This document shows positions 14,656 through 17,703 of a stretch of 32,000 nucleotides of DNA, in pieces. A model generated the notes under the pieces. That model did not search any database, was not told the origin of the DNA, and saw only the letters and a list, made by a program, of their open reading frames with translations. A program made the position numbers and the translations under genes. Source of the stretch: Candidatus Hermodarchaeota archaeon (GTDB lineage Archaea; Asgardarchaeota; Heimdallarchaeia; Hodarchaeales; Hodarchaeaceae); assembly GCA_048886185.1 (NCBI GenBank), contig JBHLKY010000020.1, positions 1 through 32,000 of the forward strand. The letters run 5' to 3'. How positions within the stretch are numbered: the first letter of the stretch is position 1; each line of letters begins with the position of its first letter.

Positions 14656-14853
14656 ACGGAGCTAAATCCCCTCTTTTGGATTTTCAAGTCACTTGAGAAA
14701 ATAAAAAATGTCCTTCAGATTTAAGTTCCAGAGAACAGAATTATGTCAACTTACAAATGAAATTACGTTATGTATATAACAATAGTTAAAAAAACAATTG
14801 TTATATTTTCTATTTGAAGAACATTTCAATAAATAAGAGAAGGCGGAACATTC

Positions 14854-16107
14854 TTGAAAGTTTATTTGGATAATAATGCTTCGACAAGGGCTGATCCAGT
14901 AGTCATCGAAGCCATGATGCCTTATTTTTCAGATATTATTAGCCCACCAAGCTCTGATTATGGCCATTCTTTTGGAGTAGAAGCAAAACAGGCCCTTGAT
15001 TCAGCACGAGAAACTCTTGCCTCTAAAATCAATGTCCATTCCTCTGAAATAGTTTTTACCTCTGGACAAGCAGAATCAAATAATTTTGCGATAAAAGGTA
15101 TAGCTCTAACAAATCTTAAAAGAAAGAGGAAAATCTTTATTGCATCAAGTGTTTCTCATTCTACAATTTTAGATAGCTTATCTTCTTTGAAAAAACATGG
15201 TTTCGAAGTAAAACTAATAAAAGTTGACTCAGAGGGTTTTATTGACCGTAGTCATTTACAAAAGCTTCTTACAGAAAATAATGAACTCCCTCTATTAGTT
15301 TCAATCCCTCATGGTAATGTTGAGATTGGTACTGTCGAAAATATTCAAGAAATTTCGTCTATCTGTCATGAATACAAAGTTCCGCTTCATGTTGAGGCGA
15401 CGTACAGTTTTTGTAAAATCCCTCTCGATGCTTCTCTTGTAGATATGGCAACAATAACTAGTCACTTAATCCATGGACCTAAAGGCGTCGGAGCTCTCTA
15501 TATTAAAAAAGGCCTCAAGATTCAAAGGTTAATTGATGGTGGTCTTCAGGAAAACAAAAAACGAGGAGGAACTGAAAATTTACCAGGAATCGTCGGTTTC
15601 GCCAAAGCAGCTGAATTGTACACACCAGCTATCAATGAGAAAGTTAGAGAACTTCGTGATTATCTGTGGGAAACCTTTAATAAAAAAATCTCAGATTTCA
15701 AAGTTACTGGCCCAACTGATAGAGATAAAAGATTACCAAATCATTTTTCAGTTGTAATTAACTATGTTGAGGGAGAATCTATCTTATTACATTTAGATTT
15801 ACTCGATTTTATGATAGCAACAGGATCTGCTTGTTCATCAAAGCAGTTAAAGGCAAGTCATGTTCTTTCAGCAATTGGACTACCAACAGAGGTCAGTCAT
15901 GGAAGTGTTCGGGTAGGATTAAGCAAATATAATACCAAGGAAGAGATTAATCAATTTATCGATCATTTAGTGAACATTGTTGAAAGATTAAGGGCAATCA
16001 GTCCAATGAATGCAGATTTTATGAGAGAGTGGCAAGAAATGAAGGATCAGGGAGTTATAGAAGAAAATAATCATCATCATGATTTTGAAGAAATAGAGGA
16101 TGAATAA
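14854..16107 (+). CDS. iscS: IscS/NifS-like class V PLP-fold protein lacking the Schiff-base lysine
   Basis: Motifs YLDNNAST, FTSG, GPKGVGAL, RGGTENLPG and TGSACSS (Cys327). The canonical SxHK motif reads TSHL. TTG start; followed directly by iscU. Confidence 0.9.
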   Translation: MKVYLDNNASTRADPVVIEAMMPYFSDIISPPSSDYGHSFGVEAKQALDSARETLASKINVHSSEIVFTSGQAESNNFAIKGIALTNLKRKRKIFIASSVSHSTILDSLSSLKKHGFEVKLIKVDSEGFIDRSHLQKLLTENNELPLLVSIPHGNVEIGTVENIQEISSICHEYKVPLHVEATYSFCKIPLDASLVDMATITSHLIHGPKGVGALYIKKGLKIQRLIDGGLQENKKRGGTENLPGIVGFAKAAELYTPAINEKVRELRDYLWETFNKKISDFKVTGPTDRDKRLPNHFSVVINYVEGESILLHLDLLDFMIATGSACSSKQLKASHVLSAIGLPTEVSHGSVRVGLSKYNTKEEINQFIDHLVNIVERLRAISPMNADFMREWQEMKDQGVIEENNHHHDFEEIEDE

Positions 16108-16516
16108 GATGGCGAAAATTTATTCCGATGAGGTCATGAAATTATTTATGAATCCAAAGAATATGGGAGAAATTGAAAATCCCAGTGGTCTTGGAAAAGT
16201 AGGAAATCCAGTTTGTGGAGACGTAATGTGGATTTATATTAAAGTTGATGACGCTACAGATGTGATAGAAGATATCAAAGTCAAAACTTTTGGATGCGTT
16301 GCTGCAATTGCCACAAGTTCAAAAACAACAGAAATGGCTAAAGGAAAAACTCTTAAGGAAGCCTATGCGATAACGAAGAAACAGGTTGCTGATGATTTAG
16401 GGGGTTTACCAAAACAAAAAATGCATTGCTCAAATCTAGCTGTTGATGCACTTCAAAGAGCAATCGTTAATTATTTTGAGAAGAAAGGTAGATCTATTGA
16501 AGAATTAGAGGGATAA
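16100..16516 (+). CDS. iscU: Fe-S cluster scaffold IscU/NifU-N family
   Basis: Motifs GNPVCGDVM, FGCVAAIA and KMHCSNLA. The ATG at 16109 is an equally likely start. Confidence 0.95.
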   Translation: MNKMAKIYSDEVMKLFMNPKNMGEIENPSGLGKVGNPVCGDVMWIYIKVDDATDVIEDIKVKTFGCVAAIATSSKTTEMAKGKTLKEAYAITKKQVADDLGGLPKQKMHCSNLAVDALQRAIVNYFEKKGRSIEELEG

Positions 16517-16525
16517 GAGAATTCA

Positions 16526-16774
16526 ATGAAAACGGAAGAACCTGACTTTTTAATTGATATCACAGGGTTAACCTGCCCAATTCCGCTGATTAAGGCACGA
16601 AGGGCAATAAAGAGCGCCAGAAAAGGTCAGAAAATCAAATTTGTGGGAACAATTGAGGAGGAAGTATCACGAAAGGAAATTCTTATAGCCATTTCTAATC
16701 TAAATCAGCGTTTAATAGAAAATATAGACCAGATTGAAGAAAAAAGATGGTATATATTAATTGAAAAAAATTAA
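16526..16774 (+). CDS. tusA: TusA/SirA-family sulfur carrier protein
   Basis: 82 aa with the IDITGLTCPIP (CPxP) motif, 9 bp after iscU. Confidence 0.85.
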   Translation: MKTEEPDFLIDITGLTCPIPLIKARRAIKSARKGQKIKFVGTIEEEVSRKEILIAISNLNQRLIENIDQIEEKRWYILIEKN

Positions 16775-16824: not shown

Positions 16825-17703
16825 TTAAGGACTTAATTTTGGAAAGAATTGGAGAAAACCACTCAATGAGTTTCCCAAAAGAATATCAATCATAAATAAT
16901 GTAATCAATGTTGAGACAGGGATTAATAAATTATCGAGATCTGATGGGGAGAAAGCTTCGATTACCATTGCAACTACACCAAGGATAATGATGACAATAA
17001 GTATGAATGCGATATCAATATTTTCTCCTGGATTAGCAAGTATAATGGAGTTAGTACCAAAGTCCATGCTGCCAATAATCCCAAGGAGTATATAAAAGAT
17101 CAAACATCCTGCTATACTAAATAATAATACTCCGAGAGACCCTTCTAAAGTTTTTTCGCGTCCCAAAGTCTTATATTTCCGATTTCCCCATCTTTTCCCG
17201 ATATATGGGGCAATTCCATCACCCCATCCCACAATCGCCATCATGAACATTCCTGCATAACTTCCGTATAGAGCTGTTCCTGCAACCATCATGACAATTG
17301 TGAAATATAATGGGCCCTTCATTAATTCACGTGGATCACCAGTTCTAGTCATTGTTTTTACATCTGGATCGTCTGATGAACCTTTCATTCCTTTATATAT
17401 AAAAGTTAAAAAAAATAAGAATGGTACAGTGATATTCAACATATAAGAGAAAAATGCTTTATCCGAGGTATTCATAAACAACCAGATCCAAATAAATGAG
17501 CCTGCTGCAATATGAATAATCTTTCGGGAAAGATCAGAGGAGAGTTTGCCAGAATCTACTAATTTTTCTAATAATGAGATTATCACTTTTACATATATCA
17601 TTGCAACTATAGCACCAAAGAAAAAATTCCATAATATTGCTCCAACATCAACACCAGCGAAGAGTATTTCTGGAAAAATCGTTATGTAACCCATTTTCAT
17701 CAC
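16825..17703 (-). CDS. CTP-dependent polyprenol/phytol/dolichol kinase family membrane protein (SEC59/VTE5-like)
   Basis: Motifs RKIIHI, GWGDGIAPYIGKRWG, KTLEGS and DNLLIP in a multi-TM protein. Confidence 0.85.
   Translation of the reverse strand: MMKMGYITIFPEILFAGVDVGAILWNFFFGAIVAMIYVKVIISLLEKLVDSGKLSSDLSRKIIHIAAGSFIWIWLFMNTSDKAFFSYMLNITVPFLFFLTFIYKGMKGSSDDPDVKTMTRTGDPRELMKGPLYFTIVMMVAGTALYGSYAGMFMMAIVGWGDGIAPYIGKRWGNRKYKTLGREKTLEGSLGVLLFSIAGCLIFYILLGIIGSMDFGTNSIILANPGENIDIAFILIVIIILGVVAMVIEAFSPSDLDNLLIPVSTLITLFMIDILLGNSLSGFLQFFPKLSP

Follow-up and report, generated by a model that had tools for sequence, protein, structure and literature searches.

We analyzed a window of 32,000 nucleotides from the genome of Candidatus Hermodarchaeota archaeon (positions 1 to 32,000 of contig JBHLKY010000020.1, assembly GCA_048886185.1), in which a gene on the forward strand, here called iscS* (misS-like; 14854..16107), encodes a homologue of cysteine desulfurases. 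The 417-aa product, which begins at a TTG codon, is a type-I class-V fold protein without the lysine that forms the Schiff base with pyridoxal 5'-phosphate (PLP). The loss of this lysine is shared by a whole clade of related archaeal proteins that retain the cysteine of the mobile loop, and iscS* is followed by genes for the iron-sulfur (Fe-S) cluster scaffold IscU and the sulfur carrier TusA. We consider it probable that IscS* is not a desulfurase and that it serves IscU as a platform and as a cysteine ligand (or arm), as in Archaeoglobus.

A desulfurase fold without the Schiff-base lysine

The Pfam model Aminotran_5 (PF00266) matches residues 3-368 of IscS* over profile positions 1-371 (5.5e-59, 200 bits). 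The best solved relatives in HMMER alignments are PDB 9wer, which bears the lysine (E 2e-91), and the IscS of Archaeoglobus fulgidus (4eb5/4r5f; E 5e-86). By sequence score, archaeal proteins of the minimal iron-sulfur (MIS) type (310 and 293 bits) rank above NFS1 (241 bits). An AlphaFold2 model built from 42 orthologues has a mean predicted local distance difference test (pLDDT) score of 81 and a predicted template modeling (pTM) score of 0.84. Its low-confidence parts include the final 14 residues and the Cys loop (322-334), where low pLDDT is expected because the loop is flexible. In Foldseek searches the model matched human NFS1, A. fulgidus IscS and Escherichia coli IscS with template modeling (TM) scores of 0.82-0.92, with NifS also among the matches, and it superposed on A. 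fulgidus IscS with a root-mean-square deviation (rmsd) of 2.4-2.5 Å at 40-42% identity. None of the NCBIfam NifS/IscS equivalog cut-offs was exceeded: IscS* scored 395.6 for TIGR03402 NifS (cut-off 530.75), 315.6 for NF010611 IscS (548) and 307.5 for TIGR02006 (643.2). As read from its sequence, IscS* is a type-I desulfurase-fold protein that lacks the family's catalytic residue, the Schiff-base Lys.

The position of that lysine (K206 in E. coli) is occupied by Leu205, encoded by TTA at 15466..15468 on the forward strand. Bases 15454-15486 (ATA ACT AGT CAC TTA ATC CAT GGA CCT AAA GGC) translate to I-T-S-H-L-I-H-G-P-K-G, and two base changes are required to turn a Lys codon into TTA. In the HMMER alignment, Leu205 falls on the Schiff-base Lys of 9wer (TSHLIHGPKG versus TAHKMYGPKG), and three further segments deviate from that protein: HVEATYS for HTDAAQS, TSGQAES for TSGGTEA and S-H for E-H. 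Within TSGQAES, Gln72-Ala73 (15067..15072, forward strand) take the place of the G/A-T of the PLP-phosphate loop. Cys327 is encoded by TGT (15832..15834, forward strand) within T-G-S-A-C-S-S-K, in the mobile loop A-T-G-S-A-C-S-S. An earlier reading of the DNA, made from the sequence alone without database searches, had called IscS* a probable non-catalytic pseudo-desulfurase on these grounds. The DNA and the 9wer alignment confirm the Lys-to-Leu replacement, the other deviations at the PLP site and the intact cysteine.

We take the contact roles in the pocket, from general structural knowledge of other IscS proteins, to be as follows: the Thr belongs to the TSG-x-T-E loop, a His stacks on the cofactor, an Asp reaches the pyridine N, a Gln reaches O3', and a Ser and a His contact the phosphate. 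IscS* retains two of these contact residues, His102 and His204. The Thr is replaced by Ala73, the Gln by Tyr184 and the Asp by Glu181; Gly72 has become Gln, and the equivalent of the Ser is variable in the clade.

Conservation of the altered pocket across the clade

The proteins closest to IscS* share 58-82% identity with it and derive from metagenome bins that their sources named Heimdallarchaeota, Hodarchaeales or Promethearchaeota, which places the window genome among Asgard archaea and makes it probably Hodarchaeales-like. Position 205 in the window clade (n = 58) is Leu in 52 members, His in five and Tyr in one; none has Lys. We compared the pocket positions of these 58 members with those of 53 Lys-bearing homologues. 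At position 72, 56 of the 58 clade members have Q and all 53 Lys-bearing homologues have G; at position 73, A is found in 51 of the 58 and T in 51 of the 53. Every clade member has S at position 101, where 98% of the Lys-bearing homologues have E, and 50 of 58 have Y at position 184, where Q is found in 47 of 53. Position 202, which aligns with the phosphate-binding Ser, holds T, A, S, E or D in the clade versus S or N in 52 of the 53 Lys-bearing homologues. The Glu that replaces Asp at position 181 of the window protein is present in 31 of the 58 members. Cys327 occurs in all 58. Together with His102, Asn155, His204, Lys210 (of GPKG), Thr240 and Arg353, it is among the residues that are invariant or nearly so in the clade and common to both groups.

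These data bear on whether the altered codon could be a sequencing or assembly artefact, or the gene a decaying pseudogene. Contigs from four public sediment-metagenome runs (all from one study) span the stretch, and no read or contig variant was found at 15466-15468; one run among them carries no flag as a candidate source of the window DNA. The frames are intact and the 58 orthologues have the same state. The ratio of nonsynonymous to synonymous substitution rates (dN/dS) is ~0.07 for the single pair on which it was computed, window iscS* and an 81%-identical orthologue (L011); in more distant iscS* pairs synonymous sites are saturated and the proportion of nonsynonymous differences (pN) is 0.17-0.24. 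We therefore rejected the artefact and pseudogene explanations, for which we found no supporting point and to which we give practically no credence. The sequence-only reading had argued against a single sequencing error, and the agreement of the four assemblies at this codon and the absence of Lys from every orthologue examined bear it out. IscS* is under strong purifying selection, and its altered pocket is a fixed state and not a stage of decay.

Repeated loss of the lysine among archaeal homologues

We placed the clade in a FastTree phylogeny of 155 archaeal homologues and in an IQ-TREE phylogeny of 71 homologues (LG+C20 model with posterior mean site frequencies, PMSF). The window clade had a support of 100 in both. 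The IQ-TREE phylogeny needs seven changes between Lys and non-Lys states, at least six of which are forced by well-supported branches. On this tree, the lysine would have been lost at least six times among the archaeal homologues sampled. Across the family its replacements are L, H, T, D, V, R, M and Y.

The window clade groups (Shimodaira-Hasegawa-like approximate likelihood ratio test, SH-aLRT, 93) with two other almost wholly Lys-less clades, whose members are for the most part encoded in Asgard genomes. Those Asgard sequences that carry the A. fulgidus-type motif (S-S-N-D-I-Y-G-P-K-G, with DA-x-A and the Arg lost) nest elsewhere, among Lys-bearing sequences. They stand in for A. fulgidus IscS, the sequence of which is not itself in the tree. 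A constraint joining these S-N-D sequences with the window clade, a group named after the tree was seen, cost 93 log-likelihood units (approximately unbiased, AU, test p = 2e-9). The trees indicate that the window clade lost Lys separately from the A. fulgidus-type S-N-D sequences.

The other Lys-less Asgard IscS-like clades resemble the window clade in that they retain the Cys, lie next to IscU and in many cases have His/Asp-rich C-termini. One of them (loci L016-L030; 17 sampled) reads A/G-H-[HLVR], with A-Q-V in one member, and has Asp at the phosphate-Ser position. Its stacking His is V or T in 14 of the 17, and there is no tusA in the loci checked. The window clade differs from it in having His102 and tusA, and the cofactor site of the A/G-H-[HLVR] clade seems to have been dismantled more thoroughly. 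Both S-H-L and S-N-D proteins are encoded in one genome (G136), which carries an S-H-L iscS*-iscU-tusA operon (L012) plus a second pair (L048/L084) composed of an A. fulgidus-like S-N-D IscS and an IscU gene in an unusually long open frame of 275 codons.

IscS* also has a C-terminal extension (residues 387-417; 16012..16104, forward strand), which is conserved in the clade according to the alignment of 42 orthologues and the model. From the secondary structure and pLDDT of the model, it is predicted to begin with an amphipathic helix (387-398, FMREWxEMK) and to continue as an acidic, disordered tail, which contains an HHH cluster (residues 407-409, nt 16072-16080). The C-terminus reads D-H-H-H-D...D-D-W in the A/G-H-[HLVR] clade and D-E-H-D-D-D-H in a Lys-bearing Heimdall-class clade. 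The His/Asp-rich tails of these Asgard IscS-like proteins may bind a metal, putatively iron.

Comparison with Archaeoglobus IscS

The IscS of A. fulgidus has Asp199 in place of the Lys, binds pyridoxamine 5'-phosphate (PMP) and shows no desulfurase activity, which the D199K substitution does not restore; the [2Fe-2S] cluster on IscU takes its fourth ligand from the Cys of this protein (PMC8918507; PMC7585200). The sequence-only reading had cited this protein as an inactive, Asp-bearing IscS with a Cys ligand, which these papers and the motif SSNDIYGPKG corroborate. The A. fulgidus IscS2-IscU system (PDB 4eb5, 4eb7, 4hvk; D199K, 4r5f) shares with IscS* the missing Schiff-base Lys, the loop Cys, GPKG and the adjacent IscU gene. 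The two proteins differ in how the pocket has changed. A. fulgidus IscS reads S-N-D and keeps TSGATE, E-H and the Asp, with the Gln changed to A and the substrate Arg to L, whereas IscS* reads S-H-L and keeps His204 and Arg353, with G72Q, T73A, E101S, Q184Y and D181E changed. The described A. fulgidus system has no TusA, and its IscS, at 382 aa, is without the His-rich C-terminal extension.

We considered whether IscS* could still be a working cysteine desulfurase, with PLP held non-covalently or with a different lysine (for instance Lys210, in GPKG) standing in for the missing one. Lys210, His204, Arg353 and Cys327 are all conserved, and IscS* is the sole type-I IscS homologue found in the genome, both of which speak for such an enzyme. 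However, GPKG is present in all homologues, including the inactive A. fulgidus IscS, and the A. fulgidus D199K variant carries PMP, not PLP (PMC8918507). The PLP contacts T73, Q184 and, in half of the clade, D181 are altered as well, and the repeated loss of Lys with very different replacements suggests that the position is no longer needed. Lys210 as a substitute Schiff-base residue was rejected because A. fulgidus IscS keeps GPKG and is nevertheless inactive. We regard a working desulfurase of either kind as very improbable.

A second possibility is that the pocket was remodelled for a new ligand or chemistry (non-covalent PMP or PLP, cysteine, a persulfide or another compound), in which case IscS* would be a neo-functionalized enzyme or a sensor. 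The replacements are themselves fixed (Q72 in 56 of 58, Y184 in 50 of 58, L205 in 52 of 58), unlike in decay, and His102, Asn155, His204, Thr240 and Arg353 are invariant or nearly so; moreover, PMP is bound by A. fulgidus IscS despite its missing lysine (PMC8918507). Against it, the phosphate contacts are lost (T73) or variable (the Ser equivalent, with Glu or Asp in some members), and the tight coupling to IscU indicates Fe-S assembly. We also know of no PLP-fold chemistry in this family that works without a lysine as general base. A new pocket function therefore seems quite unlikely to us.

The iscS*-iscU-tusA operon

The gene that follows iscS*, and overlaps its stop by 8 nt, is iscU (misU; 16100..16516, forward strand), which encodes a 138-aa U-type scaffold (Pfam NifU_N, 1.9e-45). 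The motifs PVCGD, FGC and HCS, which hold the three Cys, Asp and His ligand residues, occur in the window IscU and likewise in the other 18 iscS*-iscU loci of the clade that are complete. The IscU loop of the window protein reads LPKQK, not the HscA-binding LPPVK. We also asked whether this IscU could be a sulfurtransferase of the SufU type that serves the SufS-like enzyme described below, and rejected the idea on the basis of its SufU score (56.9, cut-off 92.5) and its HCS motif, which is of the IscU type.

Nine nucleotides past iscU starts tusA (16526..16774, forward strand). It encodes an 82-aa TusA-family sulfur carrier with the motif G-L-T-C-P-I-P (Pfam TusA 2.2e-10; 40.7 bits, cut-off 28.6), in which C17, P18 and P20 are invariant in 26 orthologues. 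This operon-type TusA is a small subfamily, with 36 members in a search of 5.8 billion proteins; for nine of the 36, the longest contig is equal in size to that of an IscS* orthologue.

Sequence downstream of iscU is available for 18 loci, and 17 of them have the order iscS*-iscU-tusA. Within the same genus it occurs in all 14 other complete loci, and each keeps C-G-D, F-G-C and H-C-S in IscU and C-P-x-P in TusA. Among more distant clade members, three of the four checked have this order, one of the three (P0050) being known from a gene table only. The cysteines are kept in every readable IscU and TusA sequence of these loci. The P0050 operon has a DsrE-like gene after tusA, and tusA is missing from the operon of P0054, the most basal of the clade members checked. 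A prediction of an IscS*-TusA complex from the alignments of the two proteins gave a median score of 0.17 (mark 0.32), which is no verdict either way.

Fe-S and sulfur-transfer genes in the genome and genus

We searched the remainder of the genome (4.84 Mb, 75 contigs, 96% complete) for other Fe-S assembly genes. The Pfam model SUFBD_core (SufB/D), which detected its target in 14 of 14 control genomes, had no match in the window genome, and tblastn of this genome with the SufB/D of relatives gave a best E of 0.32. The single NifU_N match is the window IscU. We found no match to the A-type carrier family (PF01521), no SufE and, at E ≤ 1e-30, no second type-I IscS homologue in this genome, which does encode two carriers of the Mrp/NBP35 type. 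To judge by these searches, iscS*-iscU(-tusA) is the only scaffold system detected in the window genome. At least eight genomes of the genus (the window's included) have the iscS* operon and no SufB, and two are without the operon and have a full SUF system. With the same queries, no IscU, SufB/D or IscS* orthologue, and thus no recognized Fe-S scaffold, was found in two further genomes of the genus (G107 and G119, 91-93% complete).

The sequence-only reading had proposed a search for a second, Lys-containing desulfurase. None of type I was found, as noted above; the search did recover an orphan type-II SufS-like enzyme (C5:132407-133648), which has both the H-K lysine and the H-C cysteine and scores below the SufS cut-off. 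Of 21 same-genus genomes, 17 carry its gene, among them every one of the 14 in which the iscS* operon is complete. No SufE, SufU or SufBCD that might accompany it was found in the window genome. An 89-aa open reading frame (P0122) resembling a winged helix-turn-helix (wHTH) protein overlaps the stop codon of the SufS-like gene. The genome encodes three further TusA domains. Two are in rhodanese-TusA fusions (C2:262860-263648 and C2:272097-272882), each beside a quinone-oxidoreductase-like gene, and one is in a cluster of DsrE-like, TusA, FlpD(MvhD) and HdrA-like genes (C1:54191-56874). This sulfur-relay inventory appears rich for an organism without a recognizable canonical desulfurase-scaffold pair.

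The inventory raises the possibility that IscS* is a sulfur-relay station, at which TusA persulfide, made by the SufS-like enzyme or the rhodanese-TusA proteins, passes to Cys327 and from there to IscU, the reverse of the direction in E. coli. With such a relay, the sulfur would still originate from cysteine. A relay is consistent with the dedicated 36-member TusA subfamily and its invariant CPxP cysteine, with the presence of tusA in 17 of the 18 informative operons and with the DsrE-like gene that continues one orthologous operon. It would also employ the SufS-like enzyme, which has Lys and Cys, no SufE/SufU partner in the genome and a gene in each same-genus genome with a complete operon, as well as the two rhodanese-TusA fusions and the DsrE-TusA-FlpD-HdrA cluster. 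Sulfur relays built as cascades of rhodanese, TusA and DsrE proteins are well established (PMC11094781). However, a Lys-bearing Asgard homologue that is 51% identical to IscS* (L015) likewise has IscU and TusA downstream, and TusA could therefore be an inherited acceptor that was kept for a different pathway, for example tRNA or cofactor thiolation; the most basal operon checked, moreover, is without tusA. We hold the relay to be a genuine but minority possibility.

Flanking genes and a candidate operator

Upstream of the operon are genes for a glycyl-tRNA synthetase and an agmatinase-family protein. Downstream, on the opposite strand, are genes for a multi-pass membrane protein of 292 aa without a Pfam match (16825..17703, reverse strand), a phosphoribosyltransferase and an ADP-ribosylglycohydrolase. 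None of these is obviously related to the operon. The P0050 locus also has a membrane protein nearby, with a faint CTP_transf_1 match. An inverted repeat (14774..14806, no strand assigned; arms 14774-14787 and 14793-14806) lies 48-80 nt upstream of the iscS* start. Its 14-nt arms are 93% complementary and are separated by a 5-nt spacer, and it might function as an operator or promoter element. When the upstream regions of five same-genus operons are aligned, a related repeat (AATAGTTAA...TTAACTATT) falls at the corresponding place, within the conserved block. The inverted repeat has no regulator gene next to it.

Relation to other known systems

Lys-less IscS paralogues have been noted in another archaeon. 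The IscS1 of Methanosarcina acetivorans, from one of its three iscSU clusters, is reported to be without the catalytic lysine and was proposed to act like A. fulgidus IscS (PMC7585200). M. acetivorans also has an active IscS2-IscU2 and two SufBC systems, whereas the Lys-less protein of the window genome accompanies the only IscU found, in a genome where no SufB was found.

The MIS system, reportedly defined by Garcia et al., is archaeal, as is the window operon. The two share an adjacent desulfurase homologue and U-type scaffold and no HscAB or Fdx in the operon, and we found no A-type carrier in the window genome. MIS is described as a two-gene unit, MisS-MisU, with a cysteine desulfurase (PMC13066941; PMC12192291). 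The window operon differs in that its MisS-like partner has no catalytic lysine and that tusA is added as a conserved third gene. In archaeal minimal systems, sulfide serves as a sulfur source (PMC7585200).

The E. coli IscS-TusA and IscS-IscU complexes (PDB 3lvj and 3lvl) comprise the same three protein families as the window operon, and the IscS* model matches E. coli IscS with TM 0.82-0.90. In E. coli, an active IscS gives persulfide to both TusA and IscU, whereas IscS* would be unable to make persulfide from cysteine by the known mechanism. Any transfer between IscS* and TusA could therefore run in either direction.

Proposed role of IscS*

IscS* has kept the fold of a type-I desulfurase, with a dimer-type architecture and the mobile loop that bears Cys327. 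The internal aldimine of PLP and the proton transfers mediated by the lysine would not be possible, because Lys is replaced by Leu and the pocket is remodelled (G72Q, T73A, E101S, Q184Y and D181E). In the role that we consider probable, the protein would act as a docking platform for co-translated IscU, and Cys327 would be the fourth ligand, or a persulfide-carrying arm, for the nascent [2Fe-2S] cluster. Sulfur would enter from outside IscS*, either as free sulfide, which is plausible because the organism is from sediment, or as sulfane sulfur on the co-operonic TusA, which could be loaded by the orphan SufS-like enzyme or by the rhodanese-TusA proteins. That IscS* is inactive, that its cysteine is a cluster ligand and that sulfur arrives in one of these ways is what we infer to be most likely.

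The sequence-only reading had also proposed a cluster-ligand IscS similar to that of A. fulgidus with a different substitution. This is strengthened by the fixed loss of Lys in a 58-member clade, by the further fixed pocket changes, by the independent origin and by the translational coupling to an IscU with a complete ligand set; the inactivity and the ligand role are carried over by analogy. Its corollary, that the sulfur must come from a source other than cysteine, does not follow, because sulfur relayed by TusA from the SufS-like enzyme or the rhodanese-TusA proteins would in the end still derive from cysteine. The orphan SufS-like enzyme (with Lys and Cys), the co-operonic TusA, the rhodanese-TusA fusions and the DsrE-TusA cluster could all pass on sulfur derived from cysteine. 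Two features went unnoticed in the sequence-only reading: the status of the operon as the one scaffold system found in the genome, and the conserved His-rich C-terminal tail.

Several points weigh against this explanation. His102, Asn155, His204, Thr240 and Arg353, which in active enzymes bind cofactor or substrate, stay invariant, and the pocket may therefore still bind PLP, PMP or another ligand and do more than scaffold. It is here that A. fulgidus IscS departs (H to N, R to L), which makes the analogy imperfect. In addition, six genomes of the genus have one SufB-like gene alongside the iscS* operon, which is thus not the only system in every genome that carries it. We also note that, in a 75-contig assembly that is 96% complete, a missing SufBC or second IscS may formally exist.

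A more specific scheme can be put forward tentatively, and we think it unlikely as a whole. Housekeeping Fe-S assembly in Hodarchaeales-like Asgard archaea may run on a three-part IscS*-IscU-TusA machine. Its IscS would be dead with respect to PLP, sulfane sulfur would be made elsewhere (by the orphan SufS-like enzyme or the rhodanese-TusA proteins), TusA would deliver it to the Cys loop, in reverse of the IscS-to-TusA transfer of E. coli, and the His-rich acidic tail would recruit iron.

Implications for Fe-S cluster biogenesis

Lys-less IscS paralogues are already known, with A. fulgidus IscS characterized and M. acetivorans IscS1 noted. What differs here is an independent, differently remodelled lineage that is fixed in a Hodarchaeales-like clade and has a conserved tusA and a conserved His-rich acidic C-terminal extension. 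In the near-complete window genome, moreover, it belongs to the one scaffold system that was detected. We found no paper on such a Lys-less IscS in Asgard archaea in the literature covered, which did not extend to the key MIS/SMS phylogenomic paper (Garcia et al. 2022).

Fe-S biogenesis, including that by the minimal archaeal MIS system (PMC12192291), is usually described as starting with a cysteine desulfurase, and the "desulfurase" of the window cannot work by the known mechanism. The operon turns the question of the sulfur source in minimal archaeal systems, sulfide or a protein persulfide relay, into a concrete and testable three-protein case. If the three-part machine did exist, the archaeal lineage nearest to eukaryotes would build its Fe-S clusters with a distinct architecture. 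An Asgard ancestry has been claimed for eukaryotic NFS1 and, more weakly, for ISCU (PMC12872458), and at least some of the Asgard IscS-like proteins that enter such comparisons are probably not desulfurases. In our sample the lysine disappeared independently at least six times, a recurrence suggesting that IscS can serve as platform and Cys ligand apart from catalysis and that this role can be selected alone.

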